From: Sarea resinae
Taxonomy: Eukaryota
NCBI GenBank assembly: GCA_026026165.1
Contig: JAPEUD010000069.1
Location: forward strand, 1-64,000
Length of the DNA: 64,000 nt
Direction: 5' to 3'
Below the pieces are notes generated by a model. That model was not told where the DNA came from, ran no database searches, and was given only the letters and a program-made list of their open reading frames with translations. This document shows positions 36 through 18,885 of the stretch, piece after piece. Position 1 is the first letter of the stretch; each line of letters begins with the position of its first letter. Position numbers and translations under genes: made by a program.

Positions 36-667
36 TTCCCTCATCCCCCACTCTCACTCGCACCTGCCAAACAATACAGATGATACCTGATAGTAGTTCA
101 CCGACACCACAGCCTACCCCATAAACACTACCCCACCACACCCCACCACACCACACTACAGGCGAGCGTATTCGCAATCGGACGGGCCCATCAGTCAGTC
201 AGCCAGTCGGTCAGCCAGTCAGGAGAATGAGGTACCTGCGTCATGTCTTGAAGCGGTTGCAAGTAGGTAAGGTAAGGTAAAGTAAGGTAAGGGTAAGGGT
301 CGTCAGAACGGGCGATGCAACTCCCAAGGTTCCCGCCGCTCCCCTCCCCTACTACCTACCTACCTACTCACTGTGACTACGAATGATTGGATCCACGACT
401 AGACCCAGCTTGGGGGAAGGTGGAGGAGGCGAGAGGAGCTGGACGGCGCAAAAGAAAAAAAAAAGAAAAAAAGAAAAATGACAAGACCCGCGTCTTTTTT
501 TTTCTCTCTCTCTCTCTCGAATACATTACTAAACATCCCAGACAAAGAAACGCGCCTCTGTCGTCTCGGTCGTCTCCCTTCTTGGAAGAAATCCTCTCGT
601 ATAGTGGCGCCGATACCGATACCGATACCGATACCAGCACTAACATAAACGTATTGAGGAAGGAGCG

Positions 668-883
668 ATGGGGATGATGGGGACGGCCGCCCGGTCTAAC
701 GATAGGGATACCGATAACGATCCCGGTGGGGTGGATGGAGGTGATGGTGGACGTGGGCGTGGATGTGGATATGTGGACGATGGGGCTGTGGTTGTGTCAG
801 AGCGGTCGGAGCTGTCAGAGTTGGGAGCGTTGTGGGTTGTACTCAAGGGTGGGGGAAGGGAGCTAGAGGAGAACAATGAGGGA

Positions 884-917
<34 letters not shown>

Positions 918-1975
918 AGAAGCAGGAGGAAGAGAAAGAGATAAAGGCGGATAGAGCCGATGAGGGTGAGAGTTCTGAGAACAGGAATGACGCCTCGAAA
1001 GAGCTCAACATGGCAGCAGACCCAAAGTCAACACAAGCACCAGCAACAGCACCAGCACCAACAACGATACCGAAAAGGGCTCTCAGGAGATACATCTCAC
1101 GACTCCCCATCCCCATCGCCATCCCTTCCCCCATGCGGTCGAGAGCGATTAAGCTCCCGCTTACCTCTTCCACTACCTCCTCCTATTCCTCCCCTTCCTC
1201 TAGGCAGAAACAAAAGCAGAGGCAGAGGCATACGCCAGACTCCCCCCCCTGGTACTCGCCCACAAAGTCAAGGGGCAGGATCCCCGAATCTTCGAATCGC
1301 CCTCCGCGGCACACATCTGAACATTCCTCTTTCTCTCCCTCTCCCTCTTCCTCTTCCTCTTCGTCTCCAACAACCGATTCCTCTCCCTCGCGCATCCCAC
1401 TTCTCTCACGCGTCCGTTCTCTGACCCCCGTCCTACCGCCCAAGAAAAATCCCTATCTCTCACGGCTCCCGCTCCCGCTTCCGCTTTCGCTCCCGCGCCG
1501 CCTACCTAGAGGTAGCAACCACAACCCCTCAAATATCGGTCTCAAAGCCAGCATGCCCTGCTCGCGCGACTATCTCTCAAAACTAGCCCAGTCAAGAGCA
1601 GGAGCGGACGCGGACACGAGTTTCGGGTTTCGGACCATGCCGAACGCCAGGTTCAGACGAGTCGGGATCAGCGCCGTCAGGGACGGGGACGGGGACGGGG
1701 TCGGGGTCGTGCGTACACCGCCGGGGACACCGTATACGCCGTCTACGTCGCCGGAAGGTTCGCGAGTAGATAGCGCTGGTGGTGGATGTAAGCGTGATGT
1801 TAGTATTGGTGGTGGTGGTGGTGGTGTAATGGCTCCTCCTCGCACGCATCGACCGCGTCCGGTACCTGGTATGTCATGCGAGATGCCATTGCAATGGTGT
1901 AGGAGAGGGTCGTGGTGGCGCGGTGAGTCGGCTGCAGAGATAGCCGCGTGGGTGCGGGGCGTGATGGCCGAATGA
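668..1975 (+). CDS. Hypothetical low-complexity protein (Glu/Gln-, Ser/Pro/Arg-rich); may be a spurious ORF
   Basis: 435-codon ATG-started ORF with no recognisable domain. Only the C-terminus (CEMPLQWCRRGSWW...EIAAWVRGVM) looks structured. It lies in microsatellite-rich DNA. Confidence 0.4.
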
Positions 1976-2843
1976 ACGAATGGATGGGTGGTGGTGGTGG
2001 TGGTGGTCGTCGTCGTCGTTGTCGTCGTCCTAATGCGGGATCATCTTTGGTTTGCTCTTAAGTGCTAAGTGTTCAGCTGGAGGTCGAGACGGGGCTGGAC
2101 TCGGCTCGACTCGTGGGGGGTGGTAGGATGCCGGTCGGGGCTTTTGCTGGTGCTGGTGCTGGAGAGAGAGGGTCAGAGAGAGAAAGAGAGAGAGAGAGAG
2201 CTAAAAGCTCCTGATCAGCTCTCCTAATCAACTCTCCTGCTCTCACACCCATATATCACCTATTACCTCGTCATTCTTGCGCACGGGCAGATTTCAAAGG
2301 GCGAGACAAGGCAAGGCAAGTCAAAATAGGTCAAGACAAGGCAAGGCAATAAAAAAGAGGAAATCAGACTAGAAAATCAGACAGCATGTCTTTTCTTTTC
2401 GTTTTCCCACTACCTACGCTTTCGTCTGCTGTAATAGAGAGAGGGTGAGAGAGAGAGCCAGAAAGGAAGTTTGGGCACAAGGATGTTCTAGATGGGTTTA
2501 TACTGTTTTCCTAGACAAAGGGCTTTTTCTATTCGACGGCTGGGATAACTGCTTTTCATTGCTCGTCATGAATGTCGTGAGATGGCAGTGCTCGTGACTG
2601 TCGTGAAAAGAAAAGATAAGAAGAAGAGAAAAGGTTGGGATATATCTTGCTGGGTTCGTTGTCTGTGCCGTGTCATCATGAGATCGTGTCATCGTTGTTC
2701 ATCCTGCTATGCATCCATCATCCGTCGTCCGTTATTCATCAGATCATCTAACATCCACATCCACATCCATCATCCATCCATCATCCACATCCACACCAAG
2801 CACCCACACCAGACTCGTCGACCACCCCATCATAACCCACACC

Positions 2844-5800
2844 CTAGAAAAACCCACGCGGCGGCGGCCCAACAGCACCTCCACTTCCACTTCTACCTCT
2901 CAGTCCACGTAGCGGTTCCTCAGGAAGCAGCGTGTTCAAAAACTCAGCCGCACCCTTCTTCTCTTTATCCTCCTGCTGTAGCTGCTCCTCTTCCTCACGC
3001 GGCAAGGCCCTAGGGAAGCAGACACCACGACGACGGTGCACGTCCTTGATGCTCACTTTGGCGTTCTCGAAAAGCACTTGCTGGAAGATCTTTGCTTTTT
3101 CCGCGCGCGGAAGGCGGGTCCTGGCTAAGAGTTCGGGCGGGTTTGAGTCGTATTCACGGTGGTGGGTGAATGATGAGGGCGCGTGTGTTGCGCGTGGAGG
3201 ACGAGTCGGGCTCGCGTTGGCGCTGTTGGCGGGATTGGCTGGCTGAGCACGTTCCGAGAAGGGTGAGATATTGCGGATCGAGAAAGGCGAGAGATCATGG
3301 GCCGCGCAAGGCGAAGAGGTAGCTGAAGAGGGTGGCGGCGGCGGCAGCGGAACACCAGCTGGGCTCGGGGTACGGGAGATTGATGAAGCTTCGTCGTCGC
3401 CATCGTGGTCGGTATCGGACGTGTAGAAAGGGGTGAGGCGCTCATCAGTGGCACTCGTACCCTTGCCGCTGCCCTTGCTGCCAGCCATGGTATTATGATC
3501 GCTGCCAAGACACTCTTCTGCAGCGTTGGCCTGGTCCTCACAAGGAACAGACTGCTTGATGAGGTGGTGGTCGGTGATGGTTCGGCTACTACGAGTGCTC
3601 AAGTGCTTAGTGACAGTATTGCCAGTGTCGTCGTCAGGTGAAGACTCCTCATTGGCCTTGAATGGATTATTCACTGCTCGGCCAGTGCGGACGTAGTTGG
3701 TATAGTACTCGGCGACCCAAGCCTCGCTGTCCCCGTCGTACTCGTAATCAGTGTCGGCTGCGCCATCAATGGCAAAAGAATAATGAACCATTGGCCGCTC
3801 ATTGACTGAACCATTCTCAACGCCTGGGATGGAGCTGCGTCCATAATTAGTGATGATATAGGGACCGTCGACTGTGATAGAGCTTTCTTCGCCATCACTA
3901 TCGGCTGTGTCATCTTCAACCACATTATCACCTGCGCAGTCGATTTGATAGTGCTGATAATTGCAACCACCGGCATTGTCTTCAGGTTTTGTGATCAGCA
4001 ATTCCTCAGTGGAACTTCCAAACTCCGCCGTAGAACTCCCGGACTCGATAAAGGAGCTTTCGTAGCGGCCGCTTCCACCATAACCGCTGTCGGTGGAGAA
4101 GTAAATCTCTAGGCCGTTGCAATTATTAGCAGAAGCAACGGTCTCCTCGGTGGCATTTCCATTGCCATTCATAAAGTAGTACCCTTCATCCGCCTCTCTG
4201 TCGCCAAAGGCCTCATTATGAGTTCCAGCCTCTGGCTCGGCCATGCCGTGGGGGTCGCAAGTAATGTCGTTCTCGGAGACGACCGACATTTCCTCTGCAT
4301 CGCCATCTCTGTCGGCAGGCCCATGGCCGAAGCATATTAGACAATTGCAATCAGTGCGATTGTTCCCATCACCCCAGTCGAAACTGCCGAAAGTATAACT
4401 CCCGTAGTCGAGATCGCAAACACCGTCAACGCCAAATCCCCTGTCGTCTTCGACGGCTTCCGACGGACGATTCGGGATGATGGCCGTCCCAGAGCCTGGA
4501 GACCCCAAGAGGCCACGGCTCTGGCCCACATCACTTGGACCAGTGTTCTCGCTGTGAGGAGCCATTTGAGTTGGCGTCCGAATCCGCTGTGAATCCCCGT
4601 CAATGCCGGAGGTATCACCCCTGGCTTGAGCAGAGCTAGGCGATGAATCCTGTAACGATGAGCGAGAGGGAGAGTGAGAGGGGGACGGAGACGGAGAGGG
4701 ACCCGGAGATGGAGACGGAGACGGACCCGCAGCCGGAGCTGGATTAAGGGAATGAGACCTAGAGGGAGTGGGGGAGTGGGAGTGGGAATTAAAGGGAATA
4801 GGAGGTGGAGAGCGAGTAGGAGAGGGAGATGGCTGTGCCGCCGAAGAAGTTGCCTGCTGCACCAAAAGCAGCGGTCGTGGTGATCTGTTGTCCGAGGGCG
4901 TTGCCGGAGATCTAGGAGGCTGTAAGGAAGACCTGCGTTGAGGGTGAGGCCCCCGCGCCACGAGCCTCAAGTTTTGAGCGAAGAAGCCAATCGAGTGATG
5001 CCTATCCAATCGAACGCGTGATGGGCTATTTGTGCTGCTCGGTTGCAGGGTTCTCCTCCTTCTGAGTGAATCGGCATTCACGGCAGGTGGGTCGCGTACC
5101 ACGATGCCTTCTGGTATGTCGTCGATCGTAAGTGAATGCGGAGTACTTTCGAGTCCAGACGGGTCATTGATGGTAAGTGAAGGTGGAGTACTTCCAGGTT
5201 GAATCGTGTCGGGTCCAAACACATCATCCAGATGAGCAATACCCAGACCAGTGGCAAAGTCGGTTGAAACCGGCGAGGTGAAGGAGTCGTTCATGTTATC
5301 CATAGTGTCAATCTTACGGTTCAGCCCCTCGATGACTTCGTTCAGCTCCACTCTCTCTCTGTCGTTCGCTGCCAATTTTGTGCGCAGCTTCTCGTTTTCC
5401 TTCTTCAGGTCCTTGGTCTCCTCGAGGTTGAGTTGGACCTGGATCTCGAGGCCTTCAATCTTCGTCAGGAGGTCGTCAACAGGTATGTTTGGCGTGGCCG
5501 GACTAGGCTTGCTTGGGGTGACCGGACTCGACCTGCTTGGGGTGACCGGACTGAGTTTGCTTGGCGTGACTGGACTCGGTTTGCTTGGTGTGACCGGGCT
5601 GGGTACCTGCAGGCTGTTGCTGCTCCTAAAAGACCATGGACTACCACGAGCGACTGGTGAGGGACTGCCAAGAGAAGGTGACAACTTCCCAGCGAGCTTT
5701 GAAAGAGGTTCTTTGATCTTCGAGAACAATCGGCGTCTTCTGGATGCAGTAGGGGAGTCGGCATCAGCGATCGGCGAGGCCGTAAGCTCATCCTTCGGCG

Positions 5801-7650: not shown

Positions 7651-8241
7651 TGCAGACGGGAGCTGTCACGGGGAAAGAGATGGGACGAAAGGTCAGAAAG
7701 CATGGATCTCTGAAAGCATGAAGACGAGCATAGTTTTGAGCACACAAAGTCAAACAGCATGGCTATTAAGAGAGGAAAAGGCGACAAGGTAAGATACATA
7801 TCCGAACAGCTGGACGAGGCTCCCGTCCCAGCTCCATAATTGAGCCTTATGCAGGGAGAGTGTTTGAGAGAGGCACCGTCAACCCAAGAGAACAGTTGAA
7901 ACAAAAGCCATAGACGCCTGGGAGGAGAGCCATTGCAAGGACACGAGCAGATCGACGTGGCCAGAGCCGGCAGATAGAGAAGTGGGTGGTGTGCTGTCCA
8001 GTCGGGCGAATTGTTTTTCTTAGGAGCGTCTAGGAGCTCTCGACGGAGTTAGCGCGGGCGGTAAAGATCCTTGCCAAAAGTTCCCTGTGTCGTCGAGCTC
8101 AATCTGCCACTACATACCGACATCAACATCAGACTTTCACTGCCTGCCCATCCGTTGCTGCGCCTCTCCACCGCAGGAATCAAGTTCCAGATTTTTGTGG
8201 AGGCCGTAGCGAAGCCTGCCGTCAAGCATTGGGCAATCAAC

Positions 8242-9345
8242 ATGCCTCCCTACGACTCCGACGGCGGTCGAAAGCGACGCCGCAGCCAATCTGCCTCGGG
8301 GTCTGATGTAGAGGCTCGCGTTCCAGCTCGGCGAGGCCTTCACGAGGATGATTCACATCGACGGTATCGACGCGAGGAGTTGGAAGAGAGTTACAGGGAT
8401 GCTCGAAGTAGCAGACGTCACGAGGATCGATATCGCAGCCGTTCCTACGATGAATACGAAGAGCCGCGCAGTAAACGCCCCTACATCGAAGAAGACGAGA
8501 GACCAAGAAGCAAGCGCATCCACGACGAAGACGAGCCCAAGCACCGAAGACGACGCTCCCCCTCTCACAGCGCACACCACCACCCCAAACGACACCTCTC
8601 CCGCAGTCCCGGTCGGGCAGAAAAAGAAGGAGAAGAAGGGGAAGAAAGACTCCGTCGCCACCATCACCATCACCACCACAGCAAAAGACGCCACTCGCGC
8701 TCACGCTCACCCACCCGCCGTCATTCATCGCGCCCGAAATCTAAATCTCCCCCTGTCCCACGCTCCCGAGCCCCTCTCCCCAGCCAAGCCGACGCTTTCA
8801 ATCCCAAAGATCCCTCCAGCACATCCGACGAGCCGCCCGCGCCCGAGAAGCAAAAGCCCAATTTCGCGCCTACGGGTCTACTGGCGCGCGAAACCAACAC
8901 CGTCACTGTGGCCGGCACCTCCGTCGTGCTGAAATACAACGAGCCGCCCGAGGCACGCAAACCCCCCGCGCGGGATGCCTGGCGGTTGTACGTCTTCAAG
9001 GGCGAAGACATGCTTGAGACACTCGAGCTGGGGACGCGAAGTTGCTGGCTCGTGGGGCGAGAGCGCAGCGTGGCAGACCTGCCGGTCGAACATCCGAGTT
9101 GTAGCGGCCAGCACGCAGTCTTTCAATTTCGTTTTGTGAGTCGGGTCAATGGGTTTGGGGACCGGGAGGGAAAGGTCAGGCCGTATATCATTGATTTGGA
9201 GTCGTCGAATGGCACGCTGGTCAATGGGGAGAAGATCCCGCCCAGTAGATATTTTGAGTTGAAGGATAAGGACATGGTGCAGTTCGGGCTCAGCACTCGG
9301 GAATACGTGCTCATGTTGCCGCCTCCTCCTGCCGCTACTTCCTAG
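8242..9345 (+). CDS. PML1: FHA-domain splicing factor, Pml1/SNIP1 family (RES complex)
   Basis: RS/His-rich N-terminus followed by KPNFAPTGLLARETN, LKYNEPPEARKP, WRLYVFKG, GRE, HPSCSGQHAVFQFR, PYIIDLESSNGT and FGLSTREYVLM. First ATG is at 8242. Confidence 0.92.
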   Translation: MPPYDSDGGRKRRRSQSASGSDVEARVPARRGLHEDDSHRRYRREELEESYRDARSSRRHEDRYRSRSYDEYEEPRSKRPYIEEDERPRSKRIHDEDEPKHRRRRSPSHSAHHHPKRHLSRSPGRAEKEGEEGEERLRRHHHHHHHSKRRHSRSRSPTRRHSSRPKSKSPPVPRSRAPLPSQADAFNPKDPSSTSDEPPAPEKQKPNFAPTGLLARETNTVTVAGTSVVLKYNEPPEARKPPARDAWRLYVFKGEDMLETLELGTRSCWLVGRERSVADLPVEHPSCSGQHAVFQFRFVSRVNGFGDREGKVRPYIIDLESSNGTLVNGEKIPPSRYFELKDKDMVQFGLSTREYVLMLPPPPAATS

Positions 9346-10084: not shown

Positions 10085-11318
10085 GATTGCTTTTTTAGGA
10101 TGGACTGATCTGTTCGATTGAGTGATTCTTTTGTCGAGATTCGAGTAGGGAATTTGGATTCAAAATGGATGAGGTAGATGGCAATGGGTAGAAGGGAAGG
10201 GAAGCAGAAGTGGAAGCTTCAATTGGCGTCCATTTGTATCCAGTCACGACCCCCGGTGTCATTTGATGTCAATACGTCATTTACTGTCATCCCTCTGTAC
10301 TGTACCTCAGGGCAGCTACCTCACCTGCCTCACCGACCGAGTACCCACCGTAAGGGCAAAACGCCTCAAGACTTCTTCCTACCTCTCTCGCACCTAATGG
10401 AATTCTCCCCAGTGACCGGAAGTCGTAGCCACCTCAGCCAGCCGGGCAGCTGCAAGCGAGCGAGCGAGCGCGCGTCATGTCGACGATTCCTACCTCAAGG
10501 TAGGTAGCTCGTACCACGATGCTAGTAACCAACTTTCCCATCCCGCATTCCTCGATTTCGTCATGCGATTCGCGAAACGCGATCCGGACTTTGCTGTCGA
10601 CGGAGTACGCGAGGAGGGCAGGGCAAGGCAACGCGAGCTCGAGACCCCAGACGGATCGACATCCAACTAGCAAGTCGCAGCTAAGAATAGAAGTAGCCTT
10701 CGCGCACAGTAGCAGGGAATAGCATCAATGTCAAGGAATTATCATTTCCGGCCGATGAGAGAGATCACGCATTATGCTTCAGGGGGCTTTTATATCGACC
10801 CAGAAGTGTCAGGGCAGTACTCCCGACCTATTTCGCGCCGGAGGATTCAATCTCAGACACAATGCTGTCCGATGCCATGCCATGCCAGACCATACCATAT
10901 TCTACCATACCATGCACGAAGACCGCCAAGACCGAAAGTTGAAGAGATCACCGAAGGAAAAGAAAACAAAGGTAAAGTTCAGCCAACCGAGACATGATCG
11001 AAAAACAGGAGACAATTACATACAAGGTATATATAAAGAGAACTCCACTATCGAGAAAAGGACCCGTAGCAAATGCCAACACGCCGCCCATGCTAAGAAT
11101 GCCATATATATGATGATCGTATGCGTGTGTGACAAAAGAGAAAACACCGCTATTGCGCCTGCCTGCGATGCATAGATAACCTCCTCCTCGCTATTCGAAT
11201 CAAAATGCGATTCATTTCTTTTCTCGTGCCTACAATGCCGTCTATTTCTCCGTCGAAAGGATTGTCGGAAATGCCGTGATGACAAAGACAGCGAACTTCC
11301 TCGTCAAAGGAAAAGCCC

Positions 11319-14300
11319 TCATCTGTTCCTCGTCGACACTGGAACACCACGAGCATCGAATCCGATGCCCAGAGTCGCCAGGTCAGGCTGCAGTGGAGAG
11401 CTCATGCCCCGGAGCCTTCCATCGAGCGCCACTAGCTCAGCAGGAATCGAGACCGGCCGGCCTCGGAGATCCTCAGGAGATGTATTAGAGGACGGCACGA
11501 CGACATTAACTCTCGGCAGCGACGGAAGCGGCTGAGGAACTGCGCTACCGTCTCTTCGCCAAAATGTCCGCCAGCCGCTCGTCGGTCTGAATAACCCCCG
11601 CTCGAAAGCCAGCTGGCGCTCTCGCTCGACGACTCGGGCCCGCGCGGCAGAAATGTCGACGGGCTGGTCCAGGTCACCGAATTGGACGATGCCGAGGCCT
11701 TGATTGGCGGTCTCGACGGCGATGCCGGGGCCAGAGCTGGAGCGAGACATGGAGGTGGACAGCGCAGCGTGAGAGGTGGGTGGGGACGTTTGGTTGTTGG
11801 TTGCCCATTCATTGGGAAACGGAAGGATTTCCTCTGACTTTGGGATTCGAGGATCTATGAACACGCACGTCCCGTCGAATTTGGGTGATTTCCTTACGGG
11901 CCCGCCGTCAGGCATCCTATCTCTAGGACTGGGAGATGGAAAAACAGTTGGGTAGGGCGTTGGCTCGCTGACACCAGCAATAGAGAAAGTTGACTGATTT
12001 GAGCCTTCGCGAGACATGGGTTGGGATGTCGGCTGCGACGCATAGCCCCTAGGGTAGACGGGCGGTAGACTGCCGCTTAGATAAGGTGTCAGGTCCTGTC
12101 TCGGGACCTGGAATGTGTCCTGCCGACTGTGCCGCCCATGGCCACGAAAGTCCTGGGGCAGAGATCGTTTGCCGGTGCCTGCTGTTTCATTCACCACTGG
12201 GAGCGGCATCGGGGCTGGCACAAATTGAGGCGGTTGGTAGTAAACTGGATAGCTGAGCCTAGGGTCGAATGTTACGTCAAGCGGCAGATGTGGGCTCGAG
12301 AAATGAGACTGATTCGCGTAGTGAAGGCCTGGCAGCTGCTGCGGAAGTCCGTACCTAACTTCACCAGAACTCGTCGGTGGTGGGAACGGACTTCGATCAT
12401 TTGGCACTGAGTGGGAGGTTCGTCGCTGGGGTACGAACGTGGCCGCTAATGGAGATGGCTGAAATCTGCCACTAGTCCCAGCCATTAAGTTATCGGCAGA
12501 TATAACGCGCTGCATCGCTGCTGGAAGAGGAGCCTGTGATGACGGGGGTTCCTGTGACAGGGCGGACTGATTTTGTGTCAAAGGCGACGCGTTCGATGGC
12601 GTATGGGCTGATGTATGTGCCAGTTGAGCCTTGAGGCTAGGTGGAGTGCGACTCGAGGATCTACCTCGTGATATGCTGCGGTTTCCACGCGATGGGGGCG
12701 GACTGCTCTTGTGCATTGCAGACAACAAGTTCACGGCTTCGGATGAGCCCGTAATGCCTTCTCTCGAAGGCTCCCGTGGGGGGCTCACTACGCCTTTGGC
12801 CTTTACCGTGCTGACCCATGCAGATGATGGCGTAGGTCTGGGAGTGGACATCTCTCTAAAGTGGCTATTCTGCCGCCCGGGTGAATGTACGCCTTCTTGT
12901 GGATATGGAGGCTTTAACTCGTACCCTGGGCTTTGCTCCGAAGAGTGCCAATCCTCTTGAGGCGCAGCTGGAAAGACTACCAATGGCATATCCTGTTCAG
13001 GGTATGGTCTCACTGGCATCCGCTGTTGAACGCCATCCCAATCAGCAGGGTAACTCGGATCTCTGGAGAATGGCATCCATCTGGTGGGTTGCTGCGGTGG
13101 CATCGCTGTCCGATTCACATCGGCCACCATGCTCACAGGAGACTCGAAATGTTCCTTGCTATAAGTCGATTCTGTCGAAACAGATAGCTCTGACGGATTG
13201 CATGGTGGGGTCTCAGGTCCAGAGCTCGAGCAACTGCTTGCACGGCTGAAGACAGAAGTCATATATCTAGTTCCGGAAAGAACCTCCTGAGAAGATGCTG
13301 GCGTTGTGTTCCTGATTTCTGCAGCTATCCTACTGAGCGTTGACTGCAATTGGCTCCCAGTGCTTTCAATAGTTGGGTGCTTCACGCGATATCGACCAAC
13401 GTGCTCTGCGAGTTTCTTACCATGTATCTCGTACTCTCGATAATCGGTGACTAGTGGCAGACCATCTGTGTTGCTCTTGATCAATTTATCCGCCTCGTCG
13501 AACGAAGAACAGAATATGGTGACGGCGTAGCTCAGCCACAGCGCAAGTCGGCCTTCTCGATTCAGGAGATCGCGACAAAACCCTTGGACAACGCTGTGAA
13601 GAGTAAGCACGTCCACTGCCGCCATTAGGCTCCCTCGACTTTCTTGGGATTGTGATTCTTGGGAATGTGATGACGCATGATCATCGCTATCGTTGCGACT
13701 GATCAGGGCGTGTTTCATCAGAATCCCAAATGTCATGTTTATGTCGCGTCTACTGCCTTCATAACTCGACTTGATTTCGATCCTCAGGAGACGTAGCGCC
13801 TTCTTGCCGAACTGAACCATCTCGACCGGCACACGCTGTCCAAAGAAGCAAAGGATATCTATCAGATTCCTAGCTTCGTTATACTTTAGTCTGCGCAGAT
13901 CCTCCATGATCTCCATATAAGGGGTTTCCAGCCTAGGATAGAGCGAATAGGACCTTATGTGATATTTCTGCAGTGGCTCTTTAGACTCATCCAAGCGACG
14001 GCCGACAGCGTGGATGAAAAGGGGGAGACAACCCATCTGTCTGACCAGCTCCGTCGCCCTTTTTATTTGTGCCTTGCTGGGCCTCAACAACCCGAGCTCT
14101 TCAAATAGCAATTGTCTGCCCTCGTCCTCACTTAATGGCTCAACTCTTACCGGAATCGCATTGAGGTCATTTGCCAAGCTGTCGGCCCTCGAGGTATATA
14201 TCAAACTAGAGCCGGGGCTGTTTGGTATAATTTGTTGTAGTTGGACAATATCATCTTCGCGCTCAATCGAAATTCCGTCAATCACAAGAAGCCATCCGCG

Positions 14301-16358
14301 TCGGTTATCGAACCAGTTCCTGACCCTTTCCACAGAAGAGCGTTGATCGAGCTCGTAGCTGTTCAAGATCGATTCGGACAGGTCCTTCAAGACGGCCTTT
14401 TGATCAATCGATAAGACGTCCTGCAACATCTCTTCCCTTGATTTAGCTCGTATCCAGAATATTCCACCCGGAAAGTCATTTTTCCGCTCGTTGATGTAGT
14501 GCCATGCAAGATGGGTTTTGCCGCCGCCAGGGAGGCAATGAAGTAAAACGCTGGCGTTAAAGCTCCTTGTTCTGGAATCGAGAAGCCATCTATCGAGCTC
14601 CGTCATCTCACGTCCCATGCCAACAAAGGTCGTTCGCCGAAAGCCAGGTGGCACGATAAAAAAAGGCTCTATGTCTTCAGAGGGAGAGGATGGTGTCACA
14701 GATGTGATAGTAATGGGCCCAGTGGCAGCCAGCTGAGGACGTTCGGATGCAGGAAGGGAAACAATTGATTGATCTACGGAAAAAGGAGTCAGCTCGATCT
14801 GACTACGAAACATGACTATGCTATTTCTGGAAGCCTATAGCGCAAGAGTACGTCTTTGGAAAGTTGAGAAGACATGGAAGCTAGAGGATCTCAAAAGACA
14901 CGAAGCAGATGCCGAGACTCTATTCGGCCATGTCTGTGTCTTTTTCCTCGACTCCTTCAAAGGTGTAATCGAAGCGCGGCTCTTGCCCTGGGACTGGCAG
15001 TGCTAGTTGAGACCTACTGGGAGAGAAAGTCTGAGATGAGTCCATCTGAGGTGAGGTAGAGAAGCTAGGGCGTGCGGTCTGGATGGCTAGGAAGGTTAGT
15101 GTCAGATTTGTGACTCCCGGTCTAGACGTATAAACGTACAAGGGTCTAGCTCATTTATCACTTTCTGCAACTCCAGTTGTCGAGTCTCTTGCTCACTCGG
15201 CCAGCGATTTGCAACCGCTTCTGGTGCTTCTGTTGCATAACGCTTAATAGCCTCTACAACCACTGGAAAGCCAGGCGCTTTGACGCTCTCGAATTTGCAC
15301 ATGTGGGAGTGGTCCGCTGCAATAGCTGCACGCTCAACGTGTCCCATGGACGGGGCAGCGGAATCTTCGTCGACGATCTTGTACTCGTCAGCCTTGATGC
15401 CGAAATACTCAGACGATAGTACTTACGAAGCGCCGCGACAATCCCTTGAGATCCGTCGGCTTCGCTTCGTGGAAGCAGAAGATGTGGAAGGTGTCCTGAA
15501 TATTCTCAAAGTCGCGATTGATGTTTTGTAGCGTTTCACTCTGATTCTTCAGAGCCTCAACCAGCTGAGGAGATGAATCCATGAACTTTTTGGGTAGCGC
15601 GGCACTACAGATCGATTGCAACAATACACCCCACTTGGCGAAATCGGAACCATTGTGGGGCGTGCCCAAGAACAGGATGCCATAGGTTGATACAACAATA
15701 TTTCGAAGATGAGCCCGCTTCTTATCTTTGAGACCGGTGGACATGTTGAGAGCCTGAAAGAATGTCAGTGCTGTAATCGTCCCCAGTTCAACGTCTACTG
15801 ACCCGCTTCACGACTATACCACCTAGGGAATGACAGACGAAAATGATGGGGCGTCTCGTAGCATCTCGAAGCTGTGTACAAGAGGTCAGCAAACGTATCC
15901 CCCGTCAGATTGGCGATTTCCCATACCGAACGATCTGAGTTGAGTTCCGCCAGGAGGTTTTCAGCGTGATTGTGAATCTTGTCTTTGGATGCCCCTCCCA
16001 TAAACGTCTGGACATCCGCATCGTAGCCGTATACCAACACTCTCAATTTCTGACTCTTGGCGAAAGGCGGAAGCAGCTGCGCGGGCCAAAAGACTTCGGG
16101 CTTCTTGGTGGCCCAGGTGTCGTACGGGCTGCCATTCAGGCCGTGCACCAGCACGACGCTATCTCAGGTGTCAGCCAACTGTCACAGGCAGAGATGTCGA
16201 GATGGGTCTTCCATACTCAACGGCGGGATCATCGGCAGAGTAGACTTCGCTCAACCCATAGCGTATGATCCCCAGATTCTGCGCCACTTGGGATTCCTGC
16301 AGTTCTCATCAGCCGCGGACAAAGGCAGTGAAGCTCCCAGGACGGCCGAACGTACCAT
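11319..16358 (-). CDS. SesB-like alpha/beta-hydrolase + NB-ARC protein (fungal NLR-like, 'LipA and NB-ARC' architecture), long isoform ~1490 aa; exons 16358-16356, 16296-16217, 16158-15927, 15871-15803, 15753-15427, 15377-15140, 15086-15018, 14773-11319
   Basis: Hydrolase motifs: VVLVHGL, RVLVYGYDA, PIIFVCHSLGG (nucleophile Ser), ILFLGTPH, IVDEDSA, ADHSHMCKF. NB-ARC motifs: FVG, Walker A LPGGGKT, GIFWI, Walker B WLLVIDG, LIYTSR, GCLPL, LHSVVQ. All junctions are GT-AG and in frame. Confidence 0.85.
14920..16358 (-). CDS. Predicted short isoform: stand-alone SesB-like alpha/beta hydrolase (371 aa) ending ...FEGVEEKDTDMAE
   Basis: If the donor at 15017 is not used, exon 7 (from 15086) reads 32 more codons to TAG at 14922-14920. 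Summed exon length is 1116 nt. Confidence 0.55.
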
Positions 16359-17900: not shown

Positions 17901-18885
17901 CTACCGACCCTTGAACACAGGCTTCCTCTTCTCCCTGAAAGCCAATAGCGCCTCGTCCCTATCTTGCGTCTTCACCACCACTTCGTAGGCCTTATTTTCC
18001 ACCTCTTCACCACCCCTCCAGCCTTCCACAGCCTTGAGTGCCTGATGGAGCGCAACGGGGCCGCCTTCGCAGATCTCCCGCGCTAGTCTAACGGCCTCTT
18101 CCAAGACTTTCCCTCGGGCCTTGCCTTCGGCTTGAATTTCGTCGGGTAAGACCTCAACCAGACGGTCGCATAGCCCAAGGAAGTAGGCTTCTGGTCCGGA
18201 AACCCTACGACCAGTGAGAATGAGGTCCCGAGCCCGTTGTGTACCGATGAGAGATGGCAGTCTATAAGTTCCCCCGGCCCCAGGAATTATCCCTAGTCGC
18301 GTCTCTGGAAGGGCAACTGTGGCGCAGGAGGCAAAGACGCGAAAGTGTGTGGTCAGAGCGAGCTCGAGCCCACCGCCAAAAGCCAGTGAAGAGACAGCTG
18401 AGATGGTCGGAATGGGCAGGTCGGACAGTAATTTGAAGGTGCCTCGAAGGTGAAGTAGAAAATCAGATGTCCTGTAAGCAGATAGTGAGATACTCGGCCG
18501 CCTGCAATTGAAGTAAACCCGCATGGTAGATAAGATATGCATACTGTTGTTGGGTGAATGTAGCTCGCTCCTTGAGATCCGCCCCTGCGCAGAAGCACGA
18601 ATCCACTTCACTAGACAGGATGAGTGCTCTTGTCGGCCCCTTGTCTCCTTCCTCGTGAATGCTTCTGACGAAGTGGTTCAATTCACTGAGGAGCTGGCGA
18701 GAGATGGCGTTTCGTGCCTCGGGCCGGTTAAGGGAAAGGATCTTGATTGAGCCTGTATGCGCGGCAGGCACACTGGTGGCTTTTATTAATTTCGAGACCG
18801 AGGTCGAATACGACGCGCTGCGTCGAATCAAGCTGGGATTGGAAATGGAAGCATATTTTCCGATCAAGAATGCTGGCGAGCGCAT
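17901..18885 (-). CDS. Mitochondrial enoyl-CoA hydratase / methylglutaconyl-CoA hydratase (crotonase family); exons 18885-18545, 18471-17901
   Basis: Motifs LNRPEARNAIS, FCAGADLKER, AFGGGLELAL, LPETRLGIIPGAGGTYRLP and AFREKRKPVFKGR. One GTATGC..CAG intron. Confidence 0.92.

Follow-up and report, generated by a model that had tools for sequence, protein, structure and literature searches.

A gene of the fungus Sarea resinae (Sareomycetes, Pezizomycotina) that joins a DUF676/SesB-like hydrolase to an NB-ARC-type NTPase probably gives rise to two proteins, a 1490-amino-acid (aa) fusion of both parts and a 371-aa free hydrolase, with the choice between them made at its seventh intron. The gene occupies 11319..16358 on the minus strand of the 64,000-nt stretch analysed here (contig JAPEUD010000069.1 of assembly GCA_026026165.1, positions 1 to 64,000; hereafter the window). 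Removal of intron 7, which is 244 nt long and in phase 1, would yield an mRNA for the 1490-aa hydrolase-NB-ARC protein, whereas its retention would let translation run through the donor into 32 more codons and a stop, giving the DUF676/SesB-like hydrolase on its own. The peptide added in this way (hereafter the tail) would be confined to the retained-intron isoform; it is acidic and conserved (consensus ..LPAP....F.[FY]E[VI].EVEE....) and is probably disordered. That one locus might give both an NB-ARC-fused and a free hydrolase was first proposed in a first-pass annotation of the DNA, and the proposal is now supported by conservation of the tail and by retained-intron RNA from two species, with the fused form supported by comparison among relatives.

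Gene architecture and predicted products

The gene consists of eight exons on the minus strand (16358-16356, 16296-16217, 16158-15927, 15871-15803, 15753-15427, 15377-15140, 15086-15018 and 14773-11319) and encodes the hydrolase, the NTPase and a long low-complexity C-terminal region. Exons 1 to 6 (15140..16358) specify the hydrolase domain, including the nucleophile elbow CHSLGG and a conserved DHSHM motif. Exon 7 (15018..15086) is a 69-nt linker exon in phase 1 at both ends; in some orthologous loci, such as L009, the hydrolase runs directly into the linker without the preceding intron. Exon 8 (11319..14773) carries further linker, a conserved EPFFIVPPGF motif, the NB-ARC-type NTPase and a long S/P-rich region, and ends with a stop at 11321-11319. 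When the gene was rebuilt, the coordinates and figures of the first-pass annotation held: introns 1 to 6 are 59, 58, 55, 49, 49 and 53 nt long, and intron 7 (14774..15017) is 244 nt. The donor of intron 7, GTAGGT (15012..15017), doubles as the codons for the first tail residues (S, R). The tail coding stretch (14923..15017) together with A15018 makes up the 32 codons of SRSQLALPVPGQEPRFDYTFEGVEEKDTDMAE, and a TAG at 14920..14922 closes the 371-aa hydrolase, confirming the in-frame extension originally described. The non-coding remainder of the intron (14774..14919) contains a CTGAC branch site at 14792-14788, 15 nt before the acceptor, followed by a pyrimidine run and the TAG acceptor at 14776-14774, and it also holds an in-frame ATG at 14813-14811.

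Splicing of all introns gives 1490 aa, a product that matches the deposited 'MAG: hypothetical protein M1819_006073 [Sarea resinae]' (P0001) at every residue, and retention of intron 7 gives 371 aa. The donors at 15139 and 15017 are both in phase 1, and skipping of exon 7 gives a third in-frame product of 1467 aa. The arithmetic of this third product was thus borne out; as an actual protein it was set aside, as nothing speaks in its favour and the sole RNA contig there (record 3, described below) has exon 6 joined to exon 7. An open extension of 32 codons arises by chance in random sequence about 1 time in 4-5 by our estimate, and the tail stands above chance because it is conserved in orthologues, not because the frame is open. 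Within 14600-15250 there was no Rfam match at E<=1 that would point to an RNA gene in the long intron, and its predicted fold was not better than that of shuffled sequences (z -0.28). The first residues past the donor, SRSQLALP, are similar to those past the acceptor, NQSIVSLP (minus strand, 15017-14990 versus 14773-14700); the match is short and weak, and an old duplication of the start of the linker possibly lies behind it.

The tail is conserved in orthologous loci

A scan of metagenome contigs returned 78 loci, among them 44 in which the NB part lies within ~1 kb of hydrolase exons on the same strand; 36 of these 44 are distinct. A stop-terminated tail that begins at a consensus donor and carries the motif lies at the junction in 26 of these 36. 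Its length from donor to stop ranges from 25 to 63 codons, and examples, each followed by its stop, are GRFQQALPAPESTPRFEDVYEVEEVEAKDVEMA (L001), GKEQLALPAPGNNPFPYEVEEVEEP..RF (L003), ..RTRFEFEVAEVEEMDTEMAGNR (L055) and ..LLPAPEESVTLRSYEIEEPAV (L022). When the six frames of all 78 loci were searched with a hidden Markov model (HMM) of the tail, every match at E<1e-3 fell at the junction and on the strand of the gene (32 loci, duplicates included); the next best match had E=0.15, and the NB-ARC halves held nothing better. The model was built from these same tails and is circular for them, so that this control tests specificity rather than discovery; L038 is an independent match.

The tail also bears the marks of purifying selection. 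Ratios of non-synonymous to synonymous change (dN/dS, calculated by the NG86 method) for the 13 pairs with measurable dS were 0.08 for L001/L017 (13.5 synonymous versus 9.5 non-synonymous changes), 0.08 for L020/L042, 0.11 for L008/L029, 0.15 for L027/L055, and 0.16, 0.21, 0.24, 0.26, 0.28, 0.37, 0.43, 0.59 and 0.65 for the others, although these pairs are few, short (24-49 codons) and partly non-independent. Between the Sarea tail and those of L001, L003 and L018, the proportion of synonymous differences (pS) is 0.83-0.93, which is saturated, and that of non-synonymous differences (pN) is 0.27-0.37. Tail identity exceeded that of the first 60 nt past the stop in 15 of 20 pairs. The range of dN/dS (0.08-0.65) and the conservation of amino acids thus indicate purifying selection on the stretch at 14923-15017, and codon-level conservation of a stop-containing tail, which the first-pass annotation had named as a test, is borne out by ratios below 1, by the stop that soon follows and by recurrence in several classes of Pezizomycotina. 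The tail and the intron layout are thus a conserved feature of the orthogroup across Sareomycetes, Lecanoromycetes, Eurotiomycetes, Leotiomycetes and Sordariomycetes and not a quirk of Sarea.

Annotated proteins point in the same direction. When the hydrolase part was used to look for shorter proteins, 1111 of 7271 candidates proved to be relatives, and the best 120 of these were used. At least 26 of these 120 hydrolase-only proteins carry the tail by HMM, always within 12 residues of the C-terminus, and the union of HMM and regular-expression matches raises the figure to at least 41. Tail-bearing annotated proteins come from Penicillium oxalicum, P. ochrochloron, Aspergillus tamarii, Talaromyces marneffei, Cladophialophora carrionii, Pleopsidium, Piccolia and many Teloschistaceae; most of the other listed hydrolase-only proteins end sooner and look like open reading frame (ORF) calls that terminate in an upstream intron. 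Against 1.84 billion representative proteins, the tail profile gave 27 matches at E<=0.001. One of these is an unrelated repeat protein, and each of the other 26 is a short ORF piece whose end comes no more than 8 residues past the motif; at this threshold the motif was found in no other protein family among the representatives. With a conserved, stop-terminated tail encoded in the intron that separates the two parts, the locus very likely makes the hydrolase alone as well as the fusion.

One fused gene or two neighbours

The fused protein itself is real, at least in the family. In locus L036 a single open frame of 1596 codons (377-5164) covers both the hydrolase and the NB-ARC part. Both parts also occur together in P0079, a protein of 1393 aa encoded on a 105-kb contig and probably in a single uninterrupted frame, given the way in which proteins appear to be predicted on contigs of this kind. 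Of 8000 candidates scored against the NB-ARC part, 165 proved to be relatives at E<=0.001. The best 120 of them were used, and at least 58 of these hold both the hydrolase and the NB-ARC part; their models are 1160-1731 aa long and come from Leotiomycetes, Xylariales, Eurotiales and lichen fungi. Such both-part proteins often go under the name 'DUF676 domain-containing protein' or 'LipA and NB-ARC domain protein'. These names are used in Aspergillus, Botrytis, Monilinia and Xylariales, among others, for the orthogroup to which the Sarea gene belongs: identity over the NB-ARC part is 36-50%, and the hydrolase, the position of the linker and the long disordered C-terminal region are shared.

An alternative view is that the locus consists of two separate genes, in which case the hydrolase would end at the TAG at 14922-14920, an NB-ARC gene would have its own promoter and start from the ATG at 14813-14811 or a later Met, and the fused 1490-aa model would be an annotation artefact in Sarea. 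Many pipelines do file the halves as neighbours, as with the Piccolia hydrolase M1833_004188 (P0237) and NB-ARC half M1833_004187 (P0003), and in the other 62 of the 120 listed NB-ARC relatives the model opens with the NB part or close to it. In Sarea, that part is preceded by the in-frame ATG within intron 7. However, many of these NB-only 'proteins' are intron-blind ORF calls on metagenome contigs, and that ATG lies just ~106 nt beyond the hydrolase stop. To retain its conserved N-terminal stretch, an NB-ARC gene standing alone would moreover have to start at an ATG before the acceptor, and the Sarea ATG is not conserved, being absent from L001, L017, L020 and L022.

The splice signals also argue against two genes. 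All 23 of 23 distinct tails open with x|GTRNG, and their second codon, which may be AAG, AGG, ATG, ACG or GAG, is always RNG even though it encodes five different residues (K, R, M, T, E); a codon fixed in this way while the residue varies is the pattern expected from selection on the donor and not on the protein. In most loci, moreover, a gCTGAy lies 16-22 nt ahead of a phase-1 YGTAG acceptor, and the orthologous introns, at 189-323 nt, share the same layout. Judged from these DNA signals, the stretch from 15017 to 14774 behaves as a spliceosomal intron, with donor, branch site and acceptor conserved and in compatible phase. The fused product is thus supported, at the level of sequence, by these signals together with intronless fused orthologues, and on the same grounds we consider two separate genes unlikely for Sarea.

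Annotated models of relatives at the joint

Public annotations conflict at this joint, presenting the gene as fused without the tail, as fused with the tail as an insert or as two genes. In a local BLAST of exon 7 plus the tail against the 120 NB-ARC relatives, matches were found in the linkers of a few models. The clearest instance is Botrytis cinerea, in which the BcDW1 model (P0080) has 41 residues at the exact joint (..RPIFDYEVSEVEEEDFVMAD) that are missing from the B05.10 model (P0077). The motif also lies inside models from Rutstroemia (P0059), Monilinia vaccinii-corymbosi (P0064), Peltigera (P0026) and Heterodermia (P0010), whose sister models skip it; all told, the HMM places an internal tail in 5 of the 120 listed models, to which inspection by eye adds Monosporascus P0098. 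The codon at the joint, which gives D or H in Botrytis and N in Sarea, fits a single phase-1 acceptor followed by AT.

Domains of the two parts

The hydrolase label given at first pass proved sound. P0001 matches Pfam DUF676 at 23.4 bits (cut-off 20.3), the H-S-L-G-G and H columns show no variation among 44 relatives, and an AlphaFold2 model of the orthologue P0121, built with 44 relatives, has a confident alpha/beta-hydrolase core. With Foldseek, this model matched only generic enzymes, namely thioesterases and monoacylglycerol lipases with 10-14% identity. By the DUF676 match and the predicted fold, the N-terminal part corresponds to the sesB-like effector-type domain of fungal NOD-like receptors (NLRs). 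Sections of Dyrka 2014 (PMC4986451) link sesB-like domains to the lipase domain of SERAC1. The Sarea hydrolase shares with the DUF676/SERAC1-type serine lipases the above-threshold DUF676 match and the alpha/beta-hydrolase fold, and its relative P0139 is named 'protein SERAC1' by JGI; the structural matches, on the other hand, are generic.

The NTPase was identified less directly. The corresponding region of the Sarea protein matches AAA_16 alone, at 16 bits against a threshold of 32.6, and has no NB-ARC match at E<0.01, although a Walker A GGGKT (near 14531-14514) and LLVIDG are readable in its sequence. The orthologues P0077 and P0080, which are 39-40% identical to the Sarea NB part, pass PF00931 (25.3 and 25.2 bits versus 23.5). 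The NB-ARC label therefore rests on orthologues, as the Sarea protein itself only grazes AAA_16. No Pfam repeat family (ANK, TPR or WD40) was detected C-terminally at E<0.01 in P0001, P0077 or P0080. Fungal NLRs are described in the accessible sections of Dyrka 2014 (PMC4986451) as an N-terminal effector, a nucleotide-binding oligomerization domain (NOD) and C-terminal repeats, and the same sections report Pfam annotation C-terminal of the NOD in only 52% of NLRs, which makes the earlier term 'NLR-like' tolerable though loose: the effector-type domain stands, the NB-ARC domain comes by way of orthologues and C-terminal repeats were not found by Pfam. Across relatives, the S/P-rich C-terminal region (11319-13400, minus strand) contains short near-invariant motifs such as ..SIFDRTSSSSD.., ..GY.SDR.. 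and ..SPPP.RGGG.., and it looks like a disordered stretch with linear motifs rather than a repeat sensor domain.

RNA from the locus

RNA contigs matching the locus came from run X1 (share 0.09), a wood-decay metatranscriptome kept as contigs. Record 3 (480 nt, 5 differences from the window) joins 15140 to 15086, with intron 6 removed, then continues unbroken across intron 7 and reaches 14755, 19 nt beyond the acceptor. Record 4 has intron 5 spliced, and the splice joints of introns 5 and 6 match the gene model exactly. Two of the differences in record 3 are in exon 6, both synonymous, and three are in the intron (14847, 14867 and 14905), all past the tail stop, so that the tail stretch is identical to the window; these counts are too small for a test. 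The continuation of this contig to 14755 without a loose end leaves a poly(A) site at 14780-14920, which had been put forward at first pass, unsupported, contigs being unable to show RNA ends. Further X1 contigs, over 11136-11411 and 11000-11163, cover the last codons and the 3' flank. They differ from the window by 3-nt and 1-nt deletions (11180, 11267) and several substitutions, which fits RNA from a related strain rather than the same strain.

A second species is represented by P0121 (a Logan contig of 1737 nt encoding 360 aa), which is 62% identical to the Sarea hydrolase. It lacks a 19-residue in-frame insert before the linker that is seen in the unspliced ORF P0265, and it reads into ..SRGRSQRALPAPSREPRFEFVFDGVEERDVEMAG and stops. 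The missing insert indicates that P0121 derives from RNA from which that intron had been removed, yet in which the tail intron was read through. Short Logan contigs were dropped as general proof of cDNA origin, as Eurotiales-like loci seem intronless between the aligned hydrolase pieces. The RNA test named at first pass thus came out for a free-hydrolase product, the form with intron 7 retained having been found in contigs of two species; the form with intron 7 spliced was not seen.

Neighbouring genes

Two neighbouring frames were noted in the window. At 8065-9345 on the plus strand, an open frame with a long R/S/H-rich region ends in a C-terminal FHA domain (PF00498, 58.7 bits) and may encode an FHA protein of the nucleus or one involved in splicing. 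Upstream of the hydrolase gene and on the same strand, a frame at 17901-18677 (minus strand) encodes an enoyl-CoA hydratase/isomerase (PF00378, 97.8 bits).

Discussion

The reading that we favor, in which one locus supplies a tethered and a free hydrolase, has several points to answer besides the modest number of dN/dS pairs. The retained-intron RNA of run X1 amounts to a single contig, 95-99% similar to the window, and it could be a partly processed pre-mRNA. No intron-7-spliced RNA was seen from Sarea or a close relative, where the X1 contigs do not cover 11412-14754 and are hence uninformative on the fused mRNA; similarly, short ORFs bridging residues 262-470 yielded 21 matches, including 3 annotated models that span both sides, with none transcript-like, in what was a weak search of only 679 candidates. 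Because the retained mRNA would have as much as 3.6 kb of 3' sequence behind a premature stop, nonsense-mediated decay may act on it. At the level of the HMM, the tail is also absent from 10 of the 36 distinct loci (L005, L006, L014, L024, L036, L037 and L048-L051) and is therefore dispensable in some lineages. The Cadophora-like loci L005 and L006 (3170-3534) keep the intron, and read-through there gives a short, unrelated 21-codon peptide; L014 has a short intron and no tail; L024 and L037 have only divergent look-alikes by eye; L036 has lost the intron; and L048-L051 are four distant paralogues. Finally, AlphaFold2 assigns the tail of P0121 (residues 313-360) a predicted local distance difference test score (pLDDT) below 50, so that it is predicted to be disordered and offers no clue to function.

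One alternative view is that only the fused protein is functional and that retention is splicing noise or a decay-coupled form of down-regulation, leaving the tail peptide without a role. Intron retention is the commonest splicing variant in fungi, and a premature stop in the retained mRNA, the predicted disorder of the tail and its loss in some lineages would all be expected on such a view. Noise would not, however, account for tail amino acids that are conserved across classes despite saturated synonymous sites, for dN/dS values of 0.08-0.26 in several independent pairs, or for a stop kept a few codons past the motif in 26 of the 27 census matches, and we regard this explanation as improbable. 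That the tail is instead an optional in-frame insert of the fused protein, spliced from a further donor located past the motif, which is the arrangement of the BcDW1, Rutstroemia and Monilinia vaccinii-corymbosi models, can be given very little credence: the motif is read as internal in just those 5 of the 120 listed models, whereas Sarea has no other phase-1 GT between donor and stop, a stop follows the donor by 25-63 codons in 23 of 23 tails at the DNA level, no conserved second donor was seen in the compared loci, and even a Sclerotiniaceae-like ORF piece (P0263) stops 3 residues past the match.

We therefore return to a single locus with two products. On this reading the fused mRNA should be made in Sarea itself, the retained mRNA should be translated and stable, and the ratio of the two products may be regulated. 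Given its pLDDT below 50 and the generic fold matches, the tail has the look of a short linear motif set in a disordered C-terminal stretch, and one guess is that it serves to recruit a partner or to determine where the free enzyme goes or how active it is. A complex prediction that paired the tail (54 aa) with the NB-ARC part (460 aa) scored 0.00 and, having been run without alignments or controls, is uninformative. A more speculative possibility, which we put forward tentatively, is that the Pezizomycotina hydrolase/NB-ARC locus is an ancient module in which a regulated choice at one intron sets the ratio of tethered to free hydrolase, and in which the acidic tail is a docking or inhibitory motif that would make the free form a partner, decoy or brake of the full-length protein. 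The module would then be a fungal counterpart of the truncated isoforms on which plant NLR function depends, kept for hundreds of millions of years.

In plants, alternative transcripts of NLR genes such as tobacco N and Arabidopsis RPS4 give truncated proteins, and alternative transcripts have reportedly been studied for barley MLA as well. Both there and in our proposal, intron retention or an alternative exon leads to a short product with the N-terminal domain and without the NOD and sensor parts; the plant product, however, keeps a TIR or coiled-coil (CC) signalling domain and not an enzyme. To our knowledge, no class-wide conserved, isoform-specific peptide accompanies the plant truncations. 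The parallel would be a resemblance in logic, not homology.

Fungal amyloid pairs offer a second comparison. In these systems sesB is paired with het-eN, and HET-S with NWD2, as two genes with the motif in both partners. A free SesB-like lipase beside an NLR able to carry such a domain is common to both arrangements, whereas the Sarea tail belongs to one locus, is acidic and was seen nowhere else in the loci: across all 78 of them the tail HMM matches the junction only, so that the same motif was not found at the effector C-terminus and the NLR N-terminus. The pairs themselves are covered by Daskalov 2012 and Graziani 2004, as cited in the accessible sections of Dyrka 2014 (PMC4986451). As for splicing, the mini-exons of Tuber are the sole fungal case treated in the available portions of PMC4986451, PMC9815663, PMC12258605 and PMC13449251; they diversify C-terminal ankyrin repeats and do not part effector from NOD, and a free effector made by intron retention is not mentioned in those portions. 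In the literature on 'LipA and NB-ARC' proteins we found no description of an intron-encoded tail or of two products, the search having left subscription journals and supplements outside; the phrase itself occurs, in the text available, in work on expression in Colletotrichum anastomosis tubes.

The model proposed here explains why a widespread fungal gene has attracted clashing annotations as one fused protein, as two neighbours or as a fusion with an extra insert, and for gene predictors it provides a concrete case of a long 'intron' that doubles as a terminal coding exon. The tail is a conserved, isoform-specific peptide that is held by no domain library, and it should be a useful marker for re-annotation. 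It is present in the tractable genera Botrytis, Penicillium and Aspergillus, and a conserved means of producing the effector domain in both a NOD-bearing and a NOD-free form would be a novelty among fungal NLR-like proteins.

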